From NCBI GenBank assembly GCA_963582065.1, contig CAUZRQ010000013.1, positions 910 to 64,909 of the forward strand: DNA of 64,000 nt, in the 5' to 3' direction. The stretch comes from Planctomycetota bacterium. GTDB taxonomy: Bacteria > Planctomycetota > Planctomycetia > Planctomycetales > Planctomycetaceae. A program made the translations under genes and the position numbers. The notes under the pieces were generated by a model. It saw only the letters and a list, made by a program, of their open reading frames with translations, had not been told where the DNA came from and did no database searches. Shown here one piece after another: positions 21,335 through 38,278 of this stretch. Each line of letters begins with the position of its first letter. Position 1 is the stretch's first letter.

Positions 21335-21628
21335 ATGACCGGACGTCGAATGGGCTCTCGTACACCGGCGGCTGAAGCCATGTACTGGGTGTCGACGGTG
21401 ACGACGGTTGGGCTGGTGATGGCGGTTCCGGCAGGCGTGGGTGTTTGGTTCGACCGGCTCTGGGGGACGTCTCCCTGGCTGGTCATCCCGGGCGCTCTTG
21501 TCGGGTTTGCCGTGGCAATGCGGTTCCTGCTTCAACTGGCCAATTCACAACAGTCACAGACAACAAGACGCCGGTCACCGCAGCCTTCATCGGACAGTGG
21601 TCACGTCGACGAGCCGCCTGGTTCATGA
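21335..21628 (+). CDS. AtpZ/AtpI-family small membrane protein (ATP synthase operon leader gene)
   Basis: Two TM helices with GVGVWFDRLWGTSPWLVIPGALVGF (the G..G..D...GT.P motif of the ATPase_gene1 family). First gene of the atp operon. Confidence 0.7.
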   Translation: MTGRRMGSRTPAAEAMYWVSTVTTVGLVMAVPAGVGVWFDRLWGTSPWLVIPGALVGFAVAMRFLLQLANSQQSQTTRRRSPQPSSDSGHVDEPPGS

Positions 21629-22062
21629 CCTCCCCCAATCAATCGCCTGATCAACAGCCGGTTCGCTGGCCGGTTCGCCAACTGCTTGGCCTGAGCGGCG
21701 TGCTGGCCGTGGTCTGGATCGTGCTGGCCGTCCCAATCGTGATCTACAGCGGCAGTGCGGGGCTCGAGGGTCTGTGTTGGGCGGTGATCCTGTGCCTGGT
21801 GCCGGGTTGCCTGGTGGTGGGGCTGCAGGAAATTGTCCCGTCGATGTCGGCAGCACCTCACGCGGTGATGTTGGCCACGGTGGTGCGGATGCTGTTCGTG
21901 ACCGGCGGTGTAGTGTTGCTGCGAGCGATTCGGCCGGAATTGCTGACGATGGAATTCGTCGCGTGCCTGGTGATCAGCTACCTCGCGGCGTTGGCGGCGG
22001 AATCGTACTACCTGCTGCGGCTGGTGAATCCCGTGCCGGAATCGACCCAGGAACCGAACTGA
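21625..22062 (+). CDS. atpI: ATP synthase protein I-like membrane protein
   Basis: ATG at 21625 forms an ATGA overlap with the previous stop. About 145 aa with four predicted TM segments, immediately upstream of atpB. Confidence 0.6.
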   Translation: MTSPNQSPDQQPVRWPVRQLLGLSGVLAVVWIVLAVPIVIYSGSAGLEGLCWAVILCLVPGCLVVGLQEIVPSMSAAPHAVMLATVVRMLFVTGGVVLLRAIRPELLTMEFVACLVISYLAALAAESYYLLRLVNPVPESTQEPN

Positions 22063-22940
22063 TGGCGTCCGGACACTCAGACGTTTTCCACCATGTGCGG
22101 GACTTCCCGTACTTCGAGCTGCCGTTTGGGCAGAAGCTGCCGCTGCCGAGCTTCGGCGAGTTTGAACTGACCAGGTTCATGGTGCTGCAGGTGGTGGCCT
22201 TCGTGGCGGCATTGTTGATCTTCCGCGGGCTGGCACGACGCGTGTCGGGCGGTACGCCGGTGACCGGTCGGTGGTGGAATTTCTGGGAGATGCTGGCGCT
22301 GTTCATTCGCGACGAGGTGGTCCGACCGACGATTGGTGACGGTCATCACGACGATCACCCCGACGATCACGAGGGTCAGCATGGCAGTGCCGATGCGGTA
22401 GCGACCGGCGGACATCCGGCTGACAAGTACCTGCCGTTCGTCTGGTCGTGCTTTTTTTACGTGTTGTTCTGCAACCTGCTCGGGGCGGTGCCCTGGATGG
22501 GTTCGGCCACGGCCGAGATCAACGTGACGGGGGCCCTGGCCGTTGTCGCCTTCGGAGCGACGCTGTTTTTCGGCACCAGAGAAATGGGGGTCGTGGGGTT
22601 CTGGAAAAACCAGGTCCCCGGTCTCGATCTGTCGCCGGCTCTGAAGATTGTCCTGCTGCCGATGATCTGGGTGATCGAGGTGATGGGTCTGTTCATCAAG
22701 CACGGCGTGTTGAGCGTTCGGTTGTTCGCCAACATCATGGCCGGTCACACGGTGATCGCCGTCATCCTGGGCTTCATCGCCCTGGCGTCCGATTCCTGGG
22801 TGTTTTACCTGGTGACACCGGCCAGCATCGTGGGCCAGATCCTGATCGGAGGGCTCGAGTTGTTCGTGGCGTTCCTGCAGGCCTACGTGTTTGCCTTCCT
22901 GTCGGTCCTGTTCATCGGAGCGGCGATCCACAAGCACTAG
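22062..22940 (+). CDS. atpB: F0F1 ATP synthase subunit a
   Basis: ATG at 22062 (TGATG overlap). Conserved LSVRLFANIMAGH Arg motif and C-terminal LQAYVFAFLS. Confidence 0.9.
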   Translation: MASGHSDVFHHVRDFPYFELPFGQKLPLPSFGEFELTRFMVLQVVAFVAALLIFRGLARRVSGGTPVTGRWWNFWEMLALFIRDEVVRPTIGDGHHDDHPDDHEGQHGSADAVATGGHPADKYLPFVWSCFFYVLFCNLLGAVPWMGSATAEINVTGALAVVAFGATLFFGTREMGVVGFWKNQVPGLDLSPALKIVLLPMIWVIEVMGLFIKHGVLSVRLFANIMAGHTVIAVILGFIALASDSWVFYLVTPASIVGQILIGGLELFVAFLQAYVFAFLSVLFIGAAIHKH

Positions 22941-23125
22941 TCGAGGAGACAACACACCGGAAGCGGCGGCCTGGTTGAGAGACCGGGACGTGGTTGCTTC
23001 AATGGCTGCTTCGTGATGAATCGGCCAGGTCCGGACGCGAGTCCGGCCCGCTTGTTACAGGTCCTTTTCCAAGAGAGTTCAAGAGAGGGTCTGATCGGCC
23101 ACCGAAAAATGGGTTACGGGGCTGA

Positions 23126-23521
<396 letters not shown>

Positions 23522-23632
23522 CCGGTTTTCCGTTCCGTCAGGCATCGGACTTGGCGAACTCGCGTTCGCTACTCCGGCACTGCTGGCGAATGGAAACGGT
23601 GAGACTTGCAGGACTGTAGTAAAGGCGTCGTG

Positions 23633-24220
23633 ATGCGCAGGTTCTCAACTCCTCGCCCATTGGTAGCCGCCGTCGCGTGGCTGATTGGTTCGCTTCCCGC
23701 GGTGGCCGAGGCCGCCGAGGAGGGTGTGCCGTTGAGCTTCAAGACCGACTTGGCGATCTGGTCGCTGGTGGTCTTCGTGCTGTTCGTCTTCGTGTTGAAG
23801 AAGATTGCCTGGGGTCCCCTGTCCGCCGGGCTCGACGCCCGTGAGCAGCGGATCCGCGAGGACATTGCCGGTGCCGAGTCGGCTCGCGAGCGGGCCGAGG
23901 CGATGCTGGCTGATCACGAGGCGAAACTGGCGGGCGTGCAGGAGGAGGTCAAGGAGATCCTGGCCGAGGCGCGGGGAGATGCCGAGCACACCAAGAACGA
24001 GATCATGGCGGCAGCGCAAAGCGAGGCCGAGGCGACTCGAGATCGGGCGATTGGAGAAATCGAGCGGGCCCGTGACCAGGCCCTCAAGGAACTCTTCGAC
24101 CAGGTCTCGACGCAGGTCGCCGCTGCGACCGAGCACGTGCTGGGGCGATCGCTGGATGCGGCCGACCAGCAGCGGTTGATTGGCGAGGCACTGGCGGAAA
24201 TGACTTCGGAGTCGAATTGA
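23633..24220 (+). CDS. atpF: F0F1 ATP synthase subunit b
   Basis: One N-terminal TM helix followed by a long charged helix (REQRIREDIAGAESARERAEAMLADHEAKL). Start at Met 23633; the track ORF begins at 23606. Confidence 0.85.
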   Translation: MRRFSTPRPLVAAVAWLIGSLPAVAEAAEEGVPLSFKTDLAIWSLVVFVLFVFVLKKIAWGPLSAGLDAREQRIREDIAGAESARERAEAMLADHEAKLAGVQEEVKEILAEARGDAEHTKNEIMAAAQSEAEATRDRAIGEIERARDQALKELFDQVSTQVAAATEHVLGRSLDAADQQRLIGEALAEMTSESN

Positions 24221-24252
24221 GCAACCTGGAGCGAGACGAGAGGAACGGCTAG

Positions 24253-26452
<2,200 letters not shown>

Positions 26453-26523
26453 AACCAGGCAGGCCGGTTGTTCGGCCCAAGCGTCATTTTTTGTCACTGC
26501 ACCCTTGAGTTGAAACGCCGGCG

Positions 26524-27429
26524 ATGGCCAACATCCGAACGATTGTCAAACGGCTGAAGGCGGTCAGGAACGTCCGTAAGATCACGCGGACGATGGAACT
26601 GATTGCCACGGCGCGGTTCAAGAAAGCGATGGACCGTGCGACCGAGGCGGCTGCCTACACGCAGAAGATCGCCGAGATCGTCTCGGATCTGTCCGGAGCC
26701 GCCCTCTCGTTCAGTCACCCATTGCTCGAGGGTCGCGAGACGCAGCAGAAGTGTGCCGTGCTGGTTCTGACCAGCAATCGCGGCCTGTGCGGCGGCTACA
26801 ACGGGGGCGTGTTGCGGTTGGCGGTGCCACGGATGAAGGAGTTGAAGGCCGAGGGCCGAGATGTGTCGCTGGAAGTCTCGGGCAAGCGCGGGCTGGCGTT
26901 CCTGAGATTCCAGGGTGAGACGATCGCCCACGAGTACACGCATTTCGAAGACAAGCCGACCTTCGACGAGGTCGATGAGCTGGCCAGCCGGTACATCGGT
27001 GCCTACGTTGCCGGAGAACTCGATCGTCTCGACGTCGCTTACACGCGGTTCGAGTCCTCATCGCGACAGAAGGCGACAATCGAGACCCTGCTGCCAGTCG
27101 GATCTCTCGATGTCCCCGACGACGAGTCGGCCGATTCCGGTGCAGATGACCAGGCGGGTGGCGGCAGCTCGGTCGATTACGAGTTTCTCCCCTCGGCCGG
27201 CGAGATTCTCGAGCAGATCGTCCCGGCATCATTCAAGGCCCGGCTGTTCAAGGGCTTTCTTGATGCTGCCGTCAGTGAACAGATCTTCCGGATGGTGGCG
27301 ATGAAGGGGGCCACTGAGAACGCCGGAGAGATGATCGATACGCTCTCGATGAAGTACAACCGGGCCCGGCAGACACAGATCACCTCCGAACTCAGTGAGA
27401 TCATCGGCGGAGCCGCGGCTCTCGAATAG
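26524..27429 (+). CDS. atpG: F0F1 ATP synthase subunit gamma
   Basis: MANIRTIVKRLKAVRNVRKITRTMELIA N-terminus and ITSELSEIIGGAAAL C-terminus. Confidence 0.95.
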   Translation: MANIRTIVKRLKAVRNVRKITRTMELIATARFKKAMDRATEAAAYTQKIAEIVSDLSGAALSFSHPLLEGRETQQKCAVLVLTSNRGLCGGYNGGVLRLAVPRMKELKAEGRDVSLEVSGKRGLAFLRFQGETIAHEYTHFEDKPTFDEVDELASRYIGAYVAGELDRLDVAYTRFESSSRQKATIETLLPVGSLDVPDDESADSGADDQAGGGSSVDYEFLPSAGEILEQIVPASFKARLFKGFLDAAVSEQIFRMVAMKGATENAGEMIDTLSMKYNRARQTQITSELSEIIGGAAALE

Positions 27430-28950
<1,521 letters not shown>

Positions 28951-28956
28951 AGAACC

Positions 28957-29355
28957 GTGGCAGAGAGTGCATTGCAACTCGTCCTGGTGACGCCCGAAAC
29001 CACGCTGCTCGATGCGCCCGTGCGATCGTTGCAGTTTCCCGTCTTCGACGGGCAGATCGGAGTGCTGCCGGGCCGTGCCCCCGTGGTGGGTCGCCTGGGC
29101 TACGGTGTGCTGACGGTCTCGACCTCCGACGGCGACATCGTGAAGTACTTCATCGAGGGCGGATTCGTACAGGTCAAGGCGGGGACGGTGACCCTGCTGA
29201 CCGACCGGGCACAGGGCCTCGACGACATCGATCGCCAGGCTGCCGAGGACCTGCTTGCAGAAGCTTCGAAACGGGTTCCCGTCACCGACGCCGAACTGGT
29301 CGCCAAGGAGCGCGACCAGGAAAGTGCCCGGCGGATGCTGGCCGTCGGTCGTTGA
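28957..29355 (+). CDS. atpC: F0F1 ATP synthase subunit epsilon
   Basis: 132 aa. The LQLVLVTPE...GQIGVLPGRAP...GGFVQV pattern is typical of epsilon. Last gene of the operon. Confidence 0.9.
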   Translation: MAESALQLVLVTPETTLLDAPVRSLQFPVFDGQIGVLPGRAPVVGRLGYGVLTVSTSDGDIVKYFIEGGFVQVKAGTVTLLTDRAQGLDDIDRQAAEDLLAEASKRVPVTDAELVAKERDQESARRMLAVGR

Positions 29356-29378: not shown

Positions 29379-30605
29379 CTAATGGTCGATCGCGTAGTAT
29401 TGCTCGTACACGCCGCGGGCACGCGCCGCCATCTCGTCCCAGTCCCATTCGGTTTCGGTGAATCGATCGGGGCTGAGGCTGCTGACGTATTCGGACGGGT
29501 TGTCTCGGAGTGACTCGACGACGTGCCGTCCGATGCCGGCAGACCCCGACACGCCGTGTGCATTGCAGCCACCGGCCATCACGAACCCCTTCACGCGGCG
29601 ACTCTCACCGATGATGAACCGGCCGTCGGGGGTGAAGGTGGGCCAGCCGCGGAACACACTGCGGATGCCCAGTTGCGACACCTGAGGGAACTGCGGGGCC
29701 AGTTGCTCGGCGAAGGCGGCCAGCACGTCCCAGTCTTCGCGAACCGGTGGTGCCTGCCCGTCGACGGGATAATCTCGTGGATCCAGCGACATGCTGGCCG
29801 GTTCCCAGCCCCCGCACAACAGGGCGTCGGTTTCGGCGCGGAGGTAGAGCGTGGCGTCGGGGATGCGGATCACCGGCAGGTCGGGACGCAGTCCCTCGGC
29901 CGCGACCGTCACGAAGAACTCGTGCCGCACCGGCACGATCGGCAGTTCGAGTCCGACTGAACCGGCCAGGTGCCAGGCGTGGGCCCCGGCGGCGTTGATG
30001 ACCATCGGCGTCGAAATCCGCTCCTCGGAGGTCTCGACACCGACGACCCGGTCGTCCTCGACGAGAATTCCCCGCACCGTGGTCCCGGTCAGAAACTGCA
30101 CACCCGCCTGCCTGGCCCGGGCGACATAGGCCATGGCCAGGTCGCTGGGCTGCAGGTATCCGTCGCTGGGGCACCACAGGACTCCACGGACCTGGTCGAA
30201 CCGCATTGTCGGCCAGAGCGATGCGGCCTCGTGGTTGTCCAGGAACCGTGTCTCCAGACCGGCCTCGTCGGCGACGGCCTGCATTCGCCGGAACTCCTCG
30301 ACCCGCTCGTCGCACAGGGCCAGTCGCAGCGATCCGACCTGCCGCCAGCCGGGACGGGCTCCGTCGCCGGCTTCGAGGTCCGAGAAGGTCTTGACCGACC
30401 ACATGGCCAGCCGGGTGCGGTCGAGCGAATTGCGGACCTGTCCGACCAGGCCGGCCGCCTGCGAGGTCGTCGCTGCCGCGAGCGTGGGTTCCTTTTCGAT
30501 CAGCAGGATGTCGTCGTGTCCGGCGGCAGCCAGGCTGTGGGCCACTCCGCAGCCGACGGCTCCGCCGCCGATGATGACGATCCCGGCCGTCTGTGTTTCC
30601 GTCAC
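29379..30605 (-). CDS. FAD-dependent oxidoreductase (DAO family; sarcosine/dimethylglycine-oxidase-like)
   Basis: N-terminal GIVIIGGGAVGCGVA dinucleotide fold and DAO-like architecture, 408 aa. 4-nt overlap with the upstream Rieske gene. Confidence 0.8.
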   Translation of the reverse strand: MTETQTAGIVIIGGGAVGCGVAHSLAAAGHDDILLIEKEPTLAAATTSQAAGLVGQVRNSLDRTRLAMWSVKTFSDLEAGDGARPGWRQVGSLRLALCDERVEEFRRMQAVADEAGLETRFLDNHEAASLWPTMRFDQVRGVLWCPSDGYLQPSDLAMAYVARARQAGVQFLTGTTVRGILVEDDRVVGVETSEERISTPMVINAAGAHAWHLAGSVGLELPIVPVRHEFFVTVAAEGLRPDLPVIRIPDATLYLRAETDALLCGGWEPASMSLDPRDYPVDGQAPPVREDWDVLAAFAEQLAPQFPQVSQLGIRSVFRGWPTFTPDGRFIIGESRRVKGFVMAGGCNAHGVSGSAGIGRHVVESLRDNPSEYVSSLSPDRFTETEWDWDEMAARARGVYEQYYAIDH

Positions 30606-31858
30606 GGCTGAGAGCTCACCTGTTCGAGGTACCAGTTGACCAGGGCGTCGACGTTGTATTCCTTGTACGTGGAAAACGGTCCGGGAGTGTACCGGCTGGA
30701 GCTGACTCCCCGCTGGACACTTTCGCAGATCGTCCAGTCCTGCTCGGAGGTCAGTTGCCAGAACGGCATGATCTCGTCAAGCCGGTAGTCACGGTTTTCT
30801 TTGGCGTCGGCGGCGACCAGCCAGGTCACCTGGATCCGGGTCCGGCCGGGTCCGGCCGGCAGCAAACGCGTGCTGACAGCGTGATCGCAGCTGGAGTGAT
30901 TCCAGAAGTTCGGCATCGTCCGCACTCTCAAGGTGCCCACATCGGGATCGCTGTAGTCGCCCATCAACGGGGCGACCTGTCGACCGTCCATGGTCTCGCT
31001 GAAGTAACCGTCGGCCAGGGGAGTGCGGTTGGCCGAGAACCAGCCGTCGGGGCCGCAGGCGGGGAACGACGTCATGCCCGTCTGCGTGTGTGTCACCGCC
31101 AGGCCACTGGCGGCCCACTTCTCCTGGCTTCGCAGAGACGCGTCGTCGATGGCGGCCTGGGCCTGGGGTGTGGTGTCATCGGCGTTGTAGTGGTCGAAGT
31201 TGGCCCGGATATACTGGGGATGATTCGCGTTGCAGTGATAACACTCGCGGTTGTTCTCCCAGACGATCTTCCAGTTGGCAGCCACGTCGTAATCCACGAT
31301 CTTCGCCACCCGGGCCTGTTCAAAGCCCTGGGGACGGGCGGCCGGCTCGATCAGCGCGACGGCGGGATCGAAAGCCGGCGGTTCTTCGGCCAGCGAAAGG
31401 AAGACCAGGCCCTCGAGAACACGGACGTGGGCACGGTGCAGGGCCAACGTGTCCTTGTCCAGGTCTTCCTGCATCCCACGGCAGGACTGCAGGCTGCCAT
31501 CGCGCGAGTAGGTCCATTGGTGGTATGGGCAGATGAAGCGGCCGATGCGGCCCGACGCCGATGTGCAAAGTACGGTGCCGCGGTGACGACAGACGTTGTG
31601 GAGCGCCCGGATCGTGCCGTCGTCGTCGCGGACGACGATCAGCGGATCGCTGCCGACATCCAGAGTAAAATAGTCACCCGGTTCGGGAACCTGGCAGGTG
31701 TGACCGGCAAACAGCCAGCCGTGCCGCCAGATTCGTGCGAGTTCGGCTCGATAAACCAGCTCATCGTGATAGAACTCGGCCGGTAGTCCATGGCCGGGTT
31801 GACGGCGTGAGACCAGTTGCAGGATCTGTTCGTGTTCGAGCGGGGAGATGTCTGGCAT
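30602..31858 (-). CDS. Rieske [2Fe-2S] non-haem-iron oxygenase alpha subunit (GbcA/Stc2/CntA-like)
   Basis: Rieske motif CRHRG...CPYHQW. Mononuclear-iron motif NWKIVWENNRECYHCNANHP. Confidence 0.85.
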   Translation of the reverse strand: MPDISPLEHEQILQLVSRRQPGHGLPAEFYHDELVYRAELARIWRHGWLFAGHTCQVPEPGDYFTLDVGSDPLIVVRDDDGTIRALHNVCRHRGTVLCTSASGRIGRFICPYHQWTYSRDGSLQSCRGMQEDLDKDTLALHRAHVRVLEGLVFLSLAEEPPAFDPAVALIEPAARPQGFEQARVAKIVDYDVAANWKIVWENNRECYHCNANHPQYIRANFDHYNADDTTPQAQAAIDDASLRSQEKWAASGLAVTHTQTGMTSFPACGPDGWFSANRTPLADGYFSETMDGRQVAPLMGDYSDPDVGTLRVRTMPNFWNHSSCDHAVSTRLLPAGPGRTRIQVTWLVAADAKENRDYRLDEIMPFWQLTSEQDWTICESVQRGVSSSRYTPGPFSTYKEYNVDALVNWYLEQVSSQP

Positions 31859-33219
31859 CAGGGGGACTCGGGCAGCTCGGGCACCAACGGGACGTCAGCG
31901 AGATCACCCGCCGCGTAGTGAGTGTGTCGCTTCATCAGGCAGCCGCAGGCCAGAACCAGCAGGATCACGCCCAGGACCGACATGAAGTAGGTCAGGCTGC
32001 GGAAGAAATCGATGCGGGCAGTGTCGCCGGCCAGCAGGTCTTTGCCCAGCAGCACGCTGATGGCGCCACTGTAGCCCACGGCATCGGCCACGTAGACGGC
32101 AAACACGGCCGTGCCCACGGCACGGGTCGAAGCAATCAGGCGATCAAAGAGCACCGAACCGAATGGGACATAGGTCAAGTAAGCACCCAGTCCGGTCAGG
32201 ATCATCCAGGTCAGCCCACTGACAAGTTTGAGGTCCCAGAGGATCGTGCCGCCGCCGAGCAGTAGCACGCCAAAGGTCATGATCACGAAGGTGCCATAGA
32301 GTCCCCGGCGGTTGTCCCGAATCAGGTTCAGCCCGGCCAGGGCTGCCATCACTCCAAATGCGACCCAGAGTTCACTCCGTGTGAAAATGGCCGGTTTCTC
32401 ACCGTAACCCAGGCTCTCGAAGATCTCCTTGCCGAAGTTGTCTCGATAATCCCGGTAGGCTGTCAGAAAGAAATAGACCGTCGAAAGCAGGAGCATCTCC
32501 GGCAGAAACTGCCGAAAGAACTGCCAGCGCTGTGAGCCGCCCATCGTTGTCCGTTCGACACGAGCCTCGATATCGGCTGCGTCGGGTTGCGGCAGCTGGT
32601 TGAGGAGCCAGACCGATATCACGAACAGGGGCAGGAAACAGAGTCCCGTGACAGATGGCATCCAGAACTGGTCGATCGGGAAGGTCGACATCAGCCAGAG
32701 ACCGATGTCCTTGACGGCTCCGCTGGCGACGATGTAGGCGCAGCTCAGTCCCGCCAGCAGCATCTCGGATGTCCGTCGGCCCTCGAGATACAGGACGACC
32801 AAACCCCAGACCATGCCCAATGGCAGCCCGTTGAAGAAGATGGCTACGACCTTGAGGTTGTTGGGCAGGACCGCGAACAGCAGCAGGGCCAACTCGGCCA
32901 CGAGGATCATCAACACCAGTCCCTGTGCCCGTCTCCGCCGACCGATCTCGGCACAGACCTTGATCCCGACGATCTTCGAGAGTGCGTACCCGATGATCTG
33001 GCTGATGATGAAGGCCGTTTTCAGGTCCACTTCACCGCCCAGGAATTTCAGTCCCTCGTAGCTCGCCGCGGAAAACGGCTTGCGGAAGGCGTACATGCAG
33101 AAGTAGGTCGAGAACGACGCGAAGATCACGAACGCCGTGAACAGCGGGCGGGGTGCGTTGGCCAGCCAGTCCGCCACGCGTCTGCGGGGGATGGGCACGA
33201 ATGATGTCGGCCTGTCCAT
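31858..33219 (-). CDS. Polytopic membrane transporter, MFS-like (possibly DUF5690 family)
   Basis: 453 aa with about 12 hydrophobic segments. The N-terminal FCMYAFRKPF motif recalls DUF5690 from memory. Embedded in the demethylase/ETF operon. Confidence 0.65.
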   Translation of the reverse strand: MDRPTSFVPIPRRRVADWLANAPRPLFTAFVIFASFSTYFCMYAFRKPFSAASYEGLKFLGGEVDLKTAFIISQIIGYALSKIVGIKVCAEIGRRRRAQGLVLMILVAELALLLFAVLPNNLKVVAIFFNGLPLGMVWGLVVLYLEGRRTSEMLLAGLSCAYIVASGAVKDIGLWLMSTFPIDQFWMPSVTGLCFLPLFVISVWLLNQLPQPDAADIEARVERTTMGGSQRWQFFRQFLPEMLLLSTVYFFLTAYRDYRDNFGKEIFESLGYGEKPAIFTRSELWVAFGVMAALAGLNLIRDNRRGLYGTFVIMTFGVLLLGGGTILWDLKLVSGLTWMILTGLGAYLTYVPFGSVLFDRLIASTRAVGTAVFAVYVADAVGYSGAISVLLGKDLLAGDTARIDFFRSLTYFMSVLGVILLVLACGCLMKRHTHYAAGDLADVPLVPELPESP

Positions 33220-35232
33220 TCAGCCGGATTCCTTGAGCGATTCGAGGAGCACTTCGGCCAGGTCCACGATGCTGGCCGAAGACCCCTCGGTCGCCAGGCC
33301 ATCGCCGATCATTGTCCGGCAGAACGGACACGACACAACCACGGTCTCTGCGCCCGCTGCGGTGATCTCCTCGATGCGGTCGCGTCCCACGCGGTCCTCC
33401 GGTCCGTCGTCCAGCCACATCCGCCCGCCACCAGCACCACAGCAGGCCGTGCGGCAACCGTGACGCGGCAGTTCGTCCAGTTGGGCTCCGGTCGCTTCCA
33501 GCACCTCGCGGGGTGCGTCGACGATGCCGTTGACCCGGGCCAGGTAGCAGGGATCGTGGAAGGTGACCGGCTCGGGCGACGTTCGATCCACCTGCAACCG
33601 ACCCTCGGCCACCAGCGTGGAGAGGAACTCACTGTGGTGCACCACCTCGTAGTGTCCCCCCGCGTCCGGGTAGTCGTGCTTGAGGCTGTTGAGGCAATGG
33701 GGGCAGTGAGTGACGATGCGGGTGACCTTGTGCTTCCCGAGTTCCTCGATGTTGTGGGCCGCCAGTTCAGCGAACACGAACTCCTCGCCCATCCGACGCG
33801 CCGACTCGCCGGTGCAGCGTTCCCGTTCACCCAGCACCGCGAACCGCACTCCGGCGGCCTGCAGAAGTCGGACCATGGCCCGGGCGGTGCGGCGGGACTG
33901 GCGATCGTAGGCCGCGGCGCAGCCGACCCAGTACAGCACGTCGAAGTCCGGCTGGTCGTCGACGGTCGGCACTTCGAGGCCCTCGGCCCAGTCCATCCGC
34001 TGGTCGGGCGGCAGTCCCCAGGGGTTGCCCGAGCGGCTCAGTTTCTGGAGCGCGGTGGCCGCCGGACCCCGTACCGCCCCGGCTCCGATCAGGTGCCGCC
34101 GCATGCCGATGATCAACTCGAGCGGATCGACACCCAGCGGGCAGACCTCGACACAGGCCGAGCAGGTTGTGCAGGACCAGAGAGTTTCCTCCGACACCAC
34201 CTCGCCGGCGAGCGCCGGCCGGTTGTCCGATCCGATCCCGGGCAATTGCCGGGCGAGGTCCTGGACGACGCGGCGAGGAGAGAGCGGCTTGCCGGCGGCA
34301 TGGGCGGGGCACTCGTCCTGGCAACGTCCGCACGAGACGCACGCGTCGAGCGAGACAAGTTGCCGGACGGACAGGTGGGTCATCTGGCTGGTCCCGAAAA
34401 CCCCGGTCGCCTCGACTTCTTCAATCGTCACCGGAGTCATCGTCCCCAGCGGGCGTTCGGGATGGCCGCTCAGCAGCACGCTGCCGGCCACCGCGTGCCA
34501 CAGCCGCGTCGAGGGCACCGCGGCCAACAGCCCCAACGCGACCACCGCGTGCAGCCACCAGGCGAGTCGGTGAACGACGACCGCCGTCTCCCGGGTCACT
34601 CCCGCGGTCTCCAGGCCGCCGGCCACAGCCGCCCCGACAAATGACACCCATCGTCCCGGGCTGTCGGCCTCGATGATCCGCAGGCCTTCGACCAAAAAGC
34701 CACTGGCCCCCAGGAACAGCAACGCGAACAGCACCATCCAGTCGGAACGGCGGTGTCCGATCGAGGAATCTCCATGTCGTCGCCTGATCAGAAACCAGCC
34801 GGCTCCGGCCAGCACGGCCAATCCGGCCAGGTCCATCACCGGCTCGTAGATCGCGTAGTACAGGCCCTTGTGGAACACCGGCTCGTCGGCCTCGCGACCG
34901 GCCAGCAGGGCGGCGACATGTTCGACGGCGATCAGGATGGTGCCCAGGGTCAGCACGGCGAATCCGCCGAACAGGCAACGGTGGGCCCGCGAAGCGGCCG
35001 GCCGGGTCTTGCCGAGCGTGGCCTGGGACAGCACGCGGGTGAAGATGGCACGAACCAGTTGTCCGACCGAGTGCCGCGAATCATCTGCCCGTCCCGACCG
35101 CCAGCGGCGGATCCGTGGCCAGGCGGTGGTGACGGCGATCAACCCGGCGATGATCGCCAGCGCGTAGAAGATCGCCTTCGGCACCGTGCCGATGTTGCCG
35201 AAAATCTCTCGTGTGAGCGTTTCAGTCGGCAT
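33220..35232 (-). CDS. Membrane-anchored (Fe-S)-binding CCG-domain oxidoreductase (DgcB / HdrD-like)
   Basis: N-terminal region of about 250 aa with multiple TM helices. Two ferredoxin motifs, CVSCGRCQDECP and CTTCSACVEVCP. Two cysteine-rich CCG domains (VGCAAAYD, HDPCYLAR, CCGAGGG). Confidence 0.85.
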   Translation of the reverse strand: MPTETLTREIFGNIGTVPKAIFYALAIIAGLIAVTTAWPRIRRWRSGRADDSRHSVGQLVRAIFTRVLSQATLGKTRPAASRAHRCLFGGFAVLTLGTILIAVEHVAALLAGREADEPVFHKGLYYAIYEPVMDLAGLAVLAGAGWFLIRRRHGDSSIGHRRSDWMVLFALLFLGASGFLVEGLRIIEADSPGRWVSFVGAAVAGGLETAGVTRETAVVVHRLAWWLHAVVALGLLAAVPSTRLWHAVAGSVLLSGHPERPLGTMTPVTIEEVEATGVFGTSQMTHLSVRQLVSLDACVSCGRCQDECPAHAAGKPLSPRRVVQDLARQLPGIGSDNRPALAGEVVSEETLWSCTTCSACVEVCPLGVDPLELIIGMRRHLIGAGAVRGPAATALQKLSRSGNPWGLPPDQRMDWAEGLEVPTVDDQPDFDVLYWVGCAAAYDRQSRRTARAMVRLLQAAGVRFAVLGERERCTGESARRMGEEFVFAELAAHNIEELGKHKVTRIVTHCPHCLNSLKHDYPDAGGHYEVVHHSEFLSTLVAEGRLQVDRTSPEPVTFHDPCYLARVNGIVDAPREVLEATGAQLDELPRHGCRTACCGAGGGRMWLDDGPEDRVGRDRIEEITAAGAETVVVSCPFCRTMIGDGLATEGSSASIVDLAEVLLESLKESG

Positions 35233-36187
35233 CGAGTTGTCGGATCATTTCGGGCACGATGTCATACAGGTCGCCGACGATTCCGTAGTCGGCGACCTCG
35301 AAGATCGGCGCGTGGGGGTCGGAATTGACCGCGACGATCACCCGCGAGTTCTTCATGCCGGCCAGGTGCTGGACCGCACCCGAGATGCCCACCGCGATGT
35401 AGAGTTCGGGGGCCACCACCTTGCCGGTCTGGCCGACCTGCAGATCGTTGGGCGCCAGGCCGGCGTCGACCAGCGCACGGGAACTGCCGGTCGCTCCATC
35501 GAACCGGTCGGCCAGTCCTCCGACCAGTCGCTCGAAGTCCTCCGTCGTCTTCAGGCCTCGTCCGCCCGAAACCACCACGCGGGCCTCGGTGACATCGGGT
35601 CGGTGGCTGGGGCGGCCGTCGAGACCCAGGTGGCCGGTTGAGGTCGGTAGCCGACCGAGGTCAATTTCGACCGGCGTGATCGACGCCGGCGGTGAACTCC
35701 GTTCGGGCGGTTCGGCGGCAGTGGGCCGTACGGTGACGATCAGCGGGTTCCCGTGCAGGACGACGCTGGCGGTGACCGCTCCGGCATACATCGGCCGCTG
35801 CCAGACCAGGTGGCCCCCATCCCGATGAAACCCGGTGACGTCGCTGGCCATGGCCCCCCCGAGCAGGCCGCCGGCTCGGCCGAGGATGTCGCGGGAGAAA
35901 GTTGACGAGGCGCCCAGCAGGATGTCGGCCGATTCGGATCGCATCACCCCGGCGGTCACCTCGGCCCAACGGTCCGCCAGGGGTTCGGCCAGGTCCGCGT
36001 GCGAGGCGACCAGCACCGGGCCAAACGTGGCCGCGTCGTCGGCGACCGTGGCGAGGGAGTCACCGAGTACCAGGCAGGTGACTTGATCGCCATCGCCGTC
36101 GGCCAACCGTCGGGCGAAGCCCAACGCCGCGGTTGTCCCGGCTCGCAAACGGTCTCCGTCATGCTCGGCCAACACCAGCACGTGCAT
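35222..36187 (-). CDS. etfA: Electron transfer flavoprotein subunit alpha
   Basis: C-terminal FAD-binding signature [31 protein letters not shown]. Confidence 0.9.
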
Positions 36188-36230
36188 CGTCGGGGTCTCG
36201 GTGGGTGATTAGTGAGCCGGTGGCAAACGG

Positions 36231-36986
36231 TCAGAACAACTCGGTGTTCTCTCGGAGGCATTGCAGCAGTTCGGTGACGTTCTCGAGCCGTCGGCCGGTT
36301 CGTTGGGACGACACCTGTTGGAGCCCGACCAGTTCGACCCTGGGCTCGATCTCGATTCCCAACTCCTCCAGCGACATCTCCTCGATCGGTTTTCCACGGG
36401 CCGCCAGGATGCCGGGCAACGAGGCGTAGCGGGGTTCGTTGAGTCGGAGGTCAGCGGTGATCACCGCCGGCCAGGTGACCGAAAGCGTCTCGATCCCGTA
36501 ATCGGTTTCACGAGCCACTTCGGCGCCATGTTCGGAGTCGTCGATCCGCGAGGCGAACGTGGCCTGTGGCCAGCCCAACTGGGCGGCGAGGAACTGTCCG
36601 GTCTGGGCGGAATCGTCGTCGACGGCCTGCTTTCCCATCAGGACCAGGCGTGGTCCGAGCCGGCGGGCCAATTCGGCCAGGATGCCAGCGACGTTCCACG
36701 GGTCGAGCGGTTCGGCGGCATCGACCCGGATTGCCCGGTCTGCCCCCATTGCCAACGCCGTTCGCAGTTCGTCCTCGTACGCCTCGCCCCCGATTCCCAC
36801 CACGACCACCTCGACGTCGTCGCGTCGCTCGCGCAGTCGCAACGCTTCCTCGACGGCGATTGCGTCGAAGGGGTTGATCACGAACGAGAGGTGCGAGGTG
36901 TCGACGTCGAGTTCACCGGGAACGACGCGAATCACCCCGTCGGTGTCGGGGACCCGCTTGGTCGGAACCAGTACCAGGAAACTCAT
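36231..36986 (-). CDS. etfB: Electron transfer flavoprotein subunit beta
   Basis: VPTKRVPDTD N-terminus and INPFDAIAVEEALRLRE. 251 aa, directly upstream of etfA. Confidence 0.9.
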   Translation of the reverse strand: MSFLVLVPTKRVPDTDGVIRVVPGELDVDTSHLSFVINPFDAIAVEEALRLRERRDDVEVVVVGIGGEAYEDELRTALAMGADRAIRVDAAEPLDPWNVAGILAELARRLGPRLVLMGKQAVDDDSAQTGQFLAAQLGWPQATFASRIDDSEHGAEVARETDYGIETLSVTWPAVITADLRLNEPRYASLPGILAARGKPIEEMSLEELGIEIEPRVELVGLQQVSSQRTGRRLENVTELLQCLRENTELF

Positions 36987-38278
36987 GCCGTCGGTCCGTC
37001 TCCACCTGTCTGCTCCACGACACTCCCATCCCCGTCCTCGATTCGCCCGTAGTACCCCGCGTGCATCTGGTAACAGGCTGCCTCGATGTCGGGGCGGTCC
37101 TGCAACTCGGGGTGTTCGAAGAACCGGTCGGCCTGGATTGCCTCGATGTCGTAGCCGGTGCGGCCGTCGAGCACCAGCTCTGCCATGATCACACCGATTG
37201 CCGGGCTCTGCACGATTCCGTGTCCACAGAATCCCGAGCAGTGGAACAGGCCTTCGATGTCTGGTCGCCGGCCGCAGAACGGTTTGCCGTCGGGTGAAAA
37301 GGTCATGATGCCGCGGGTGATCGTCATTGGAGTGCGTTCATCGATCCAGGAGAATCGCCGCTTGGTGGCGTCGATCAGCAGGGCCACGTGCAGGTCGTCG
37401 GCACGCACCGTCAGTGACGACATGTCAAAGTCATCGGGAAGAGATGCCATGTCGTGCTGCACTGCGTCGGCACCGTACATGCCCACGATCAGGCCGCCGG
37501 ATTCGGGTCGCGAGTAGATTCTCAGGTGGCGGTCTCGGATGGCCGGGCTGAGCCGATCGACGGGATGACCGTCGTCGGGGCGGGTGGTCAGGTAGACGTG
37601 TCCCAGGGCGGCGGTCTGCAGCGGGGTGTCGACCAGTCCGGCGACCAGGTACGACCATGGACCGGCGGCGTTGATCACCACGTCGGTCGAGATGGTGCCG
37701 TGATCGGTGATGACACCACGGACACGGTTCTCGGTGATGTCGAGCCCGCGGACGGGACAGCCGGGATGGTAGACGACCCCGGATTCCCGGCCGAGTTTCA
37801 GGTAGGCCGCCACCAGTTCGGCCGGCTGCAGGTGGCCGTCGGTGGGGCAGTAGCAGGCATCGATCAGGTCGTCGGTCCGCATGTAGGGGAGCAGCTCCGA
37901 GACCTCGTCGACTGGCAGGTGGTCGATGTCGAAACCGATCCCGCGTCCCATCTCGACCAGGTCACGGATCTCGCCCGCCCGCTCGTCGGTCTGGGCCACT
38001 CGCAAGGAGCCGGTTTGTACGAAGATCTCGACGTCCGCCCGCTCTTCCAGTTCCGTGACGATCTCCACACCGTCCATCAACATCCGGGTGGCGGCGGGCG
38101 AACCACGGAGTTGGCCCAGCAGGCCGGCCGCGCGGCCGGTTGATCCGTTCCCCAATCGCTCGCGTTCGAGGACGGTCACCGACGTTCCACGCGACGCCAA
38201 TTGCATCGCCGTGCTCAAGCCGGCGACGCCACCTCCGACAACGACAACGTCGCTGGTCTCCGGGAGGGCATCGGCCAT
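36983..38278 (-). CDS. FAD-dependent oxidoreductase (DAO family), second copy
   Basis: VVVVGGGVAGLSTA dinucleotide fold and DAO-like architecture, 431 aa. First gene of the operon, overlapping etfB by 4 nt. Confidence 0.8.
   Translation of the reverse strand: MADALPETSDVVVVGGGVAGLSTAMQLASRGTSVTVLERERLGNGSTGRAAGLLGQLRGSPAATRMLMDGVEIVTELEERADVEIFVQTGSLRVAQTDERAGEIRDLVEMGRGIGFDIDHLPVDEVSELLPYMRTDDLIDACYCPTDGHLQPAELVAAYLKLGRESGVVYHPGCPVRGLDITENRVRGVITDHGTISTDVVINAAGPWSYLVAGLVDTPLQTAALGHVYLTTRPDDGHPVDRLSPAIRDRHLRIYSRPESGGLIVGMYGADAVQHDMASLPDDFDMSSLTVRADDLHVALLIDATKRRFSWIDERTPMTITRGIMTFSPDGKPFCGRRPDIEGLFHCSGFCGHGIVQSPAIGVIMAELVLDGRTGYDIEAIQADRFFEHPELQDRPDIEAACYQMHAGYYGRIEDGDGSVVEQTGGDGPTA

Follow-up and report, generated by a model that had tools for sequence, protein, structure and literature searches.

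What does an operon do that joins a Rieske oxygenase to two flavoenzymes, an electron transfer flavoprotein (ETF), a membrane Fe-S protein, and a transporter, and that encodes no reductase? The question is raised by a locus in a Planctomycetota bacterium (GenBank assembly GCA_963582065.1, contig CAUZRQ010000013.1, positions 910 to 64,909). These 64,000 nucleotides are referred to here as the window (G000:C13:910-64909, where G000 is the source genome, with a completeness of 98.65% and a contamination of 7.9%); other genomes (G), contigs (C), and loci (L) are cited by handle where needed. An earlier note, made from the sequence alone, had described the locus as a putative betaine-type demethylation island, with glycine betaine as the model and a methylated aminophosphonate listed last among the candidate substrates. 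The operon is real, conserved, and uncharacterized. We propose that it probably catabolizes 2-(trimethylammonio)ethylphosphonate (TMAEP, or M3AEP), demethylating it to aminoethylphosphonate (AEP) or phosphonoacetaldehyde for PhnW/X, and that it perhaps also takes 1-hydroxy and less-methylated relatives. That the substrate is a phosphorus-bearing trimethylaminoethyl compound, TMAEP or phosphocholine, is very probable; the two differ by one oxygen, and the clade to which the Rieske protein belongs may take both.

Layout and conservation of the operon

Seven open reading frames (ORFs), all on the minus strand, run from 38278 down to 29379 in the window. In transcriptional order, with their Pfam domains, they are:

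36983..38278, minus strand: DAO1, a flavoenzyme of 431 aa (DAO, PF01266)
36231..36986, minus strand: etfB (ETF, PF01012)
35222..36187, minus strand: etfA (ETF and ETF_alpha, PF01012 and PF00766)
33220..35232, minus strand: a likely EMO/FadF-like membrane Fe-S protein (NarI-like, Fer4, and two CCG domains)
31858..33219, minus strand: the DUF5690 putative transporter (PF18943, 443 bits)
30602..31858, minus strand: the Rieske oxygenase, of group Vb type by its best PDB match (Stc2), tree, and conserved residues (Rieske and Ring_hydroxyl_A)
29379..30605, minus strand: DAO2, a flavoenzyme of 408 aa (DAO, PF01266)

An ORF check confirmed the genes, strand, order, and coordinates given in the earlier note, and Pfam agrees with its domain content, with the transporter now named as DUF5690. 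The junctions along the operon measure -4, +43, -11, 0, -1, and -4 nt, so that the overlaps of 4 to 11 nt and gaps of at most 43 nt noted before are broadly right, leaving out, trivially, one 1-nt overlap and one abutting pair. The seven-gene order recurs intact in 11 further loci, some of them near-identical kin (L001, L002, L004, L006, L052, L094, L095, L097, L100, L206, and L207), and is not due to chance. Only Rieske residues 139-415 match in L001, and L037/L209 represent a rearranged form. The Rieske gene is missing from the operon in L005 and is likewise absent, partial, or cut in L017, L018, and L001, all of which retain DUF5690 and the flavoenzymes; the cause may be a turn to substrates with fewer methyl groups, or a faulty assembly.

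Phosphonate genes near the operon and its relatives

The surroundings of the operon and its relatives indicate a phosph(on)ate head group, and a methylated aminophosphonate is the best candidate. In G337, a single-strand series reads DUF5690-Rieske-DAO1-etfB-etfA-FeS-DAO2, followed by an alcohol dehydrogenase (ADH, TIGR03366), phnA, phnY, and phnW. The series spans two contigs whose ends overlap by exactly 127 nt inside etfA, with complementary etfA halves, and the join is likely rather than proven because assemblies can also break at branch points with overlaps of this kind. Three loci on other branches than G337 also carry phosphonate genes. In L055, phnA-phnY and two unrelated opposite-strand genes precede Rieske-DAO2-DMGDH, and in L121 and L154, pbfA is convergent on Rieske-DAO2, with phnY-phnA also present in L121. 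Searching plasmids with only the Rieske protein as query, without selection on DUF5690, brought up a sister Rieske lineage. It comprises five plasmid records, of which the three opened come from Alphaproteobacteria (Aminobacter MSH1, Shinella Teo12, and Sinorhizobium RAC02); an AEP ABC transporter and phnY lie within ~24 kb in all three, pbfA in two, and phnWA in one.

At the genome level, phnW was matched in 18 of 20 genomes with the Rieske clade, as against 19 of 300 random Planctomycetota, 20 of 33 genomes with DUF5690 but without the Rieske clade, and 0 of 12 planctomycetes whose Rieske relatives are distant (36-44%). Because of DUF5690 selection and kinship, this enrichment is overstated and is suggestive rather than a test. 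The search covered 50 of 80 DUF5690 genomes, and the counts exclude G305, G317, and G318, in which DUF5690 is present and the Rieske gene lost or broken; all three match phnW. PhnX or PhnA was found in 14 of the 15 clade genomes tested, never both. The source genome itself has one operon (L088:5848-10884, G000:C20) with an organophosphate:phosphate antiporter (OPA)-type transporter of the major facilitator superfamily (MFS), a phnZ-family HD oxygenase, phnX, phnW, and a TIGR03366 zinc ADH. phnW is also present on C276 and C375 (62% to a query), two copies that may be contamination.

The Rieske oxygenase

By sequence, the Rieske protein is a predicted group Vb-type N-demethylase of a separate clade. 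Its best PDB sequence match is Stc2 (E 1e-83; others 1e-30 or weaker), the Foldseek top five are Stc2 and 3N0Q, and the predicted model aligns with Stc2-type structures at a TM of 0.86-0.90, with 36-38% identity to Stc2 (PDB 3VCA). In the available text of Quareshy et al. 2020 (PMC7948474), group Vb is defined by Asn replacing CntA Tyr203, with a bridging Glu. N203, at this position, and bridging E205 occur in 94/94 unique clade sequences, and the cluster ligands C90/H92/C110/H113 and iron triad H208/H213/D374 are invariant in 70 rows. The rows analyzed for phylogeny, like the flavoenzymes, were placed in a quick tree, here of 124 rows and without true P. aeruginosa GbcA or BmoA; the Rieske protein falls inside a 100-row clade (SH-aLRT 99), a 7-row Stc2/GbcA-like group is separate (SH-aLRT 100), and the nearest outsiders are the Aminobacter protein and L058 (SH-aLRT 98). 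The protein groups with Stc2 and not with CntA or ring dioxygenases, in a clade of its own.

Several identities could consequently be set aside. A ring-hydroxylating dioxygenase was rejected, since the protein groups with Stc2 by PDB match, fold, and tree, and its assignment to the quaternary-amine N-demethylases in the earlier note stands. A carnitine or choline oxygenase is ruled out because Tyr203 is absent. Orthology to GbcAB was rejected on a score of 387 bits with the GbcA equivalog model (cut-off 670), the separate clade, and the lack of a linked GbcB; six Stc2/GbcA-like plasmid proteins score 459-548 bits with the same model, above the operon's protein.

What distinguishes the clade is a set of basic residues. 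R311 and R313 are invariant in 94/94 unique sequences, where Stc2 has Leu297 and Phe299, and K399 is present in 93/94. In the predicted model (pLDDT 92), a single strand of the catalytic domain carries both arginines; judged from known oxygenase structures, they would face the substrate and bind its phosphonate.

The DUF5690 transporter

DUF5690, which has no NCBIfam match, is likely a distant GlpT/OPA-type MFS protein that imports a phosph(on)ate-bearing substrate. Its profile aligns with a GlpT-led alignment at a probability of 91% (E 1e-6; 18% identity), and R46/K47, K82, and R256 fall opposite R45/K46, K80, and R269, residues with substrate roles in GlpT. GlpT alone reached a non-significant probability of 2.5% with the DUF5690 profile, and a pairwise BLAST comparison between DUF5690 and an OPA-type MFS was not significant either. 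The earlier view that this is no BCCT or ABC betaine carrier agrees with the Pfam assignment, and no BCCT or betaine ABC gene was seen among the neighbors scanned. Phosphonate genes (phnW, X, Y, A, Z, pbfA, or TIGR03364) occur in 20 of 80 DUF5690 loci. Among six plasmid records with DUF5690, four were opened; phnX adjoins it in three, and the fourth has a HAD hydrolase and a zinc ADH. DUF5690 or an OPA-type MFS is present in 41 of 101 Rieske-clade loci. In seven loci (L021, L025, L029, L039, L046, L061, and L068), a class I methyltransferase gene lies directly upstream of DUF5690.

The flavoenzymes

Both flavoenzymes are nearest, among solved structures, to proteins of the dimethylglycine dehydrogenase (DMGDH)/DMGO type, as had been claimed: DAO1 matches 1y56_B and DMGDH, and DAO2 has DMGDH as its closest relative of solved structure. 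Each has the DAO-type domain only, with no C-terminal GcvT folate domain, and the 120 best homologues of each span 359-459 aa in a length-limited search. A His that binds FAD covalently in DMGDH and sarcosine dehydrogenase (SarDH) is replaced by Arg in DAO1 and Gln in DAO2 (Q49 in at least 90% of 72 rows) and is kept in full-length neighbors. A His/Tyr pair, which we take to be the active-site pair, is kept in DAO2 (H228/Y254) and DAO1 (H227/Y255).

DAO1, which forms its own clade, accompanies etf in 17 of 18 loci; it is inferred to be an ETF-linked amine dehydrogenase. It is never encoded together with the full-length enzyme F017, which occurs in 19 loci, for which reason the two look interchangeable. 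DAO2 is the Rieske gene's most constant neighbor: 58 of its 62 loci also hold a clade Rieske gene, and in 44 of the 76 loci with room to see, it lies directly downstream of that gene. It shares ~34% identity with the putative PbfC of Azospirillum sp. B510 (identified by position between phnX and pbfA, not by accession) and sister to it at SH-aLRT 86, on a long branch of a quick tree. Identity with PbfB or PbfD was rejected because DAO1 scores 45 bits with TIGR03329, which we take to stand for PbfB (cut-off 633), and DAO1 and DAO2 score 67 and 52 bits with TIGR03364 (cut-off 285). A third stand-alone DMGDH-family flavoenzyme, encoded among sulfatase genes (L092:6390-7613, G000:C8), shares a "PVR" arginine with DAO2 and PbfC.

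Electron transfer

The etfB and etfA genes are the only copies found in G000, with a single tblastn match each. The membrane protein has a NarI-like membrane domain, two 4Fe-4S motifs, two CCG domains, and five predicted helices, and six invariant His in the first 246 residues, together with invariant Cys, are found in 19/19 sequences. It is likely an EMO/FadF-like ETF:quinone oxidoreductase with a predicted heme-b domain, a better description than the DgcB-like protein of the earlier note, which was right about a membrane CCG Fe-S protein. DgcB works with an OYE-type partner, DgcA, and Pfam bears out that the operon has none. In the available text of PMC8805022, EMO, an ETF:methylmenaquinone oxidoreductase, is described as reversible.

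How the oxygenase is supplied is less evident. The operon has no reductase, and the GbcB model, with a cut-off of 500 bits, scores at best 22.9 in G000, confirming that a GbcB-type enzyme is missing. PF00970 and PF14759 find nothing in this genome, and its four Fer2 matches belong to other enzymes. Two control reductase queries matched 0 of 101 clade loci, compared with 8 of 8 Stc2/GbcA/CntA-type loci (the Stc2 locus, six Stc2/GbcA-like, and yeaWX); they also match the Aminobacter sister locus. No clade genome passes the GbcB cut-off. Short Cys/His motif matches occur in 10 clade loci, in segments of 30-203 aa, and a 125-aa ORF with such a motif in L120 has no Pfam match at 1e-10. Whether a partner is encoded elsewhere in the genome had been raised as a point to check; no FNR- or GR-type reductase was found in G000, and two stand-alone Rieske-domain ORFs were, with open frames of 168-169 aa, unlinked, on C9 and C22.

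The candidate donors would be DAO2, ETF (fed by DAO1 or a reversible EMO), or a housekeeping ferredoxin. That electrons come from DAO2 or ETF and not from an NAD(P)H reductase is a proposition we rate just short of even. A DMGDH-family flavoenzyme is present in 48 of 56 well-flanked clade loci. Alternatively, and concerning electron supply only, an unlinked housekeeping ferredoxin or reductase may serve the oxygenase, with the flavoenzymes acting as the next pathway steps, an account that is tentative and yet quite possible. The two small Rieske-domain ORFs could act as ferredoxins, which weighs against a flavoenzyme donor, as do the unlinked full-length GbcB-like matches (130-249 bits) in G337, G301, and G304, the 8 of 56 well-flanked loci without a nearby flavoenzyme, and the PDR-type reductase of the sister lineage. 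However, a housekeeping donor has to contend with the absence of an oxygenase reductase of FNR or GR type from the G000 results, with the contrast between clade and control loci, with the frequency of the flavoenzyme, and with a Shinella locus in which it follows the Rieske gene without a reductase. A predicted Rieske-DAO2 complex scored 0.00, which is evidence neither way. More specifically, DAO2, as a non-covalent flavoenzyme, might return the two electrons from product oxidation to the Rieske oxygenase, directly or via ETF, making a self-fueling demethylase; we consider this rather unlikely. If true, the first two demethylations would depend on O2 and not on an NAD(P)H reductase, and the operon would represent a second trimethyl-AEP route with a Rieske oxygenase driven by the pathway's own amine dehydrogenase.

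Among the sister loci, that of Shinella Teo12 (L231:14433-18159) has no PDR reductase and a flavoenzyme gene directly after the Rieske gene, and those of Sinorhizobium RAC02 and Aminobacter (L232 and L174) keep a PDR-type reductase. Reductase loss can be compared across these loci in naturally occurring, cultured strains.

Proposed pathway and rival substrates

In the pathway that we propose for TMAEP, DUF5690 would import the anion, as its likeness to GlpT and its context suggest. The Rieske oxygenase, its R311 and R313 binding the phosphonate, would use O2 and two electrons to take one methyl off presumed TMAEP as formaldehyde, giving dimethyl-AEP; this type of reaction is established for group Vb. 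DAO2 and DAO1 would then oxidize the tertiary and secondary amines, either by a DMGDH-like cut that yields formaldehyde and finally AEP or by a PbfC-like cut to methylamine and phosphonoacetaldehyde; either is possible. EtfAB and then the EMO-like protein would carry electrons from DAO1 to the quinone pool, and PhnW and PhnX, encoded on C20 and putatively linked to the operon, would release phosphate, ammonia, and acetaldehyde. G000 could handle formaldehyde or methylamine: fae homologues are present, as is gmaS together with soxA/soxB-like (mgd-type) genes. In addition, fae occurs in three clade loci. A glutamate-synthase-like gene, a type III glutamate-ammonia ligase, and soxA/soxB-like genes lie together as an N-methylglutamate methylamine pathway (L091:1066-8957, G000:C52).

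Several observations weigh against TMAEP. A phosphonate enzyme lies inside the locus in just 4 of 101 clade loci, the clade genomes G319 and G557 lack phnW, and 14 clade genomes were reached through DUF5690, many of them kin. R311 is also present in 2 of 7 Stc2/GbcA-like rows. One Rieske subclade, which appears Chloroflexi-like judged from its gene set, is instead neighbored by MttB and choline-kinase-like genes. Phosphatase-like genes (PHP, EEP, or metallophosphoesterase-like) occur in 24 of 101 clade loci and eutB in 2 of 101, and a GlnA-like gamma-glutamylase, an enzyme type usable for ethanolamine-type amines, is found in 13 of 20 clade genomes, compared with 6 of 33 DUF5690-only and 0 of 12 distant-Rieske genomes.

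These last counts bear on phosphocholine, the C-O-P isostere, which would be demethylated to phosphoethanolamine and dephosphorylated, with the ethanolamine going to EutBC or gamma-glutamylation and phosphonates being at most a side substrate. We consider this substrate unlikely. GlpT-type carriers do move phosphate esters, choline-kinase-like genes occur in three clade loci, and the GlnA-like module is on C80 of G000 and, in L097, is divergently oriented to the complete operon; G319, without phnW/X/A, has GATase-ADH-GlnA and an aldehyde dehydrogenase gene (ALDH) beside the operon. Nevertheless, a search for EutB matched 0 of 10 clade genomes; in G000 it came up empty as well, as did the PHP and kinase queries. 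In L018, a PHP gene is part of a phnW/phnA/phnZ cluster. The G337 operon that reads straight into phnAYW and the sister lineage among AEP genes likewise speak for TMAEP rather than its isostere.

A glycine-betaine route (betaine to dimethylglycine to sarcosine to glycine), the model of the earlier note and perhaps fed by TmpAB-type cleavage of TMAEP, is quite improbable: the group Vb signature and Stc2 fold, the kinship of DAO2 with DMGDH, the ETF linkage, and the PhnZ-family HD oxygenase and 16 PhyH-family proteins of G000 would suit it, but the GbcA score, the separate clade, the phosph(on)ate context with an organophosphate-type transporter and no betaine carrier among scanned neighbors, flavoenzymes without flavinylation His or folate domain, and a PF02668 search that found no TmpA in G000 all go against it.

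Three gene groups met along the way deserve mention. The GlnA-like gene of G000 lies in an operon with a permease, a C26 peptidase, and an SDR gene (L196:4202-8706, G000:C80), and its distribution follows the Rieske clade. In the subclade mentioned above (L118, L119, L124, L129, L130, L140, L142, L152, L164, and L171), the Rieske gene is flanked by a full-length DMGDH-like gene on one side and an MttB-family methyltransferase gene on the other, accompanied by an APC permease and sometimes a choline-kinase-like gene, which suggests O2-dependent and corrinoid demethylation side by side. The sole TauD protein of G000 sits in what we take, by eye, to be a PvcA/PvcB-like pair beside a UbiA-like membrane gene (L180:471-3693, G000:C120), a possible isonitrile cluster.

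Distribution and genomic setting

The nearest relatives of the operon are in marine Planctomycetaceae metagenome-assembled genomes. The Rieske clade is rare, being found in 1 of 300 random Planctomycetota genomes and 8 of 300 in the order (at least 51% identity), and no further member appeared among 300 other genomes sampled from the phylum of G310. The term "island" has no compositional support: the GC content is 0.657 for the operon and 0.636 for the genome, a horizontal origin by composition was rejected, and the operon is patchy in distribution rather than foreign. An F-type ATP synthase operon (window 21445-29355, plus strand) is convergent on it, with 23 nt between the operon end and atpC and no terminator-like site in this gap. 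Promoter and terminator scans gave results at chance level, and an alignment of 10 upstream regions has merely scattered conserved bases. Short exact contigs from several operon genes are present in two seawater metatranscriptomes and are uninformative on co-transcription or strand, and 10 seawater runs contain at least half of the sampled operon words.

Significance and comparison with known systems

If our reading is true, the operon represents a second, undescribed route for recycling trimethyl-AEP that feeds the common PhnW/X and PhnW/Y/A pathways, and it provides candidate enzymes for such a route in seawater bacteria. With ~100 Rieske demethylases that have no linked reductase, the electron source becomes a testable question, and cultured strains of Aminobacter, Shinella, and Sinorhizobium carry a sister version. 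A search of mostly open literature, with subscription papers largely outside it, found no paper on the Rieske clade or the demethylation route and none on Rieske proteins with aminoethylphosphonate, with phnW, or with ETF and no reductase; DUF5690 returned one unrelated preprint.

On sequence grounds, the system is a group Vb member, but it is not GbcAB, DMGDH/SarDH, or PbfB/D. With Stc2, GbcA, and BmoA, the oxygenase shares the fold, the Asn at CntA-203, the bridging Glu, the Cys pair, and the His-His-Asp triad; it differs in its own clade, R311/R313/K399, the lack of a linked reductase, and the organophosphate-type transporter. That transporter resembles the GlpT/AepP organophosphate:phosphate antiporters in its profile match and basic residues in register, but differs in its 18% identity and in the match to GlpT alone, so that its transport role is a predicted one. 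The plan of one oxygenase, two flavin oxidations, and ETF is also that of the glycine-betaine route. Like DMGDH/SarDH with ETF and EMO, the operon would pass electrons from an amine dehydrogenase through ETF to a membrane Fe-S protein, and it keeps the His/Tyr pair; unlike them, it has no GcvT domain or covalent-FAD His, and it has an EMO-like protein instead of ETF-QO.

For trimethyl-AEP itself, the available text of Zangelmi et al. 2023 (PMC10590968) and of PMC10574752 gives the two oxygenases TmpA and TmpB as the only described route, with C1 hydroxylation followed by a cut of the C-P bond to glycine betaine, and the same text of the former reports that none of its flavoenzymes acts on trimethyl-AEP and that PbfC is the N-methyl-AEP dehydrogenase of Azospirillum sp. 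B510. DAO2 resembles PbfC in being a stand-alone DAO-family enzyme of ~400 aa with no flavinylation His, and the two are weakly sister, but they are too distant for orthology, and PbfC is inactive on trimethyl-AEP and has no Rieske partner. The proposed substrate is the same as that of TmpA/TmpB of Leisingera caerulea, but in the operon the nitrogen would be demethylated first and the product passed into PhnW/X or PhnW/Y/A.

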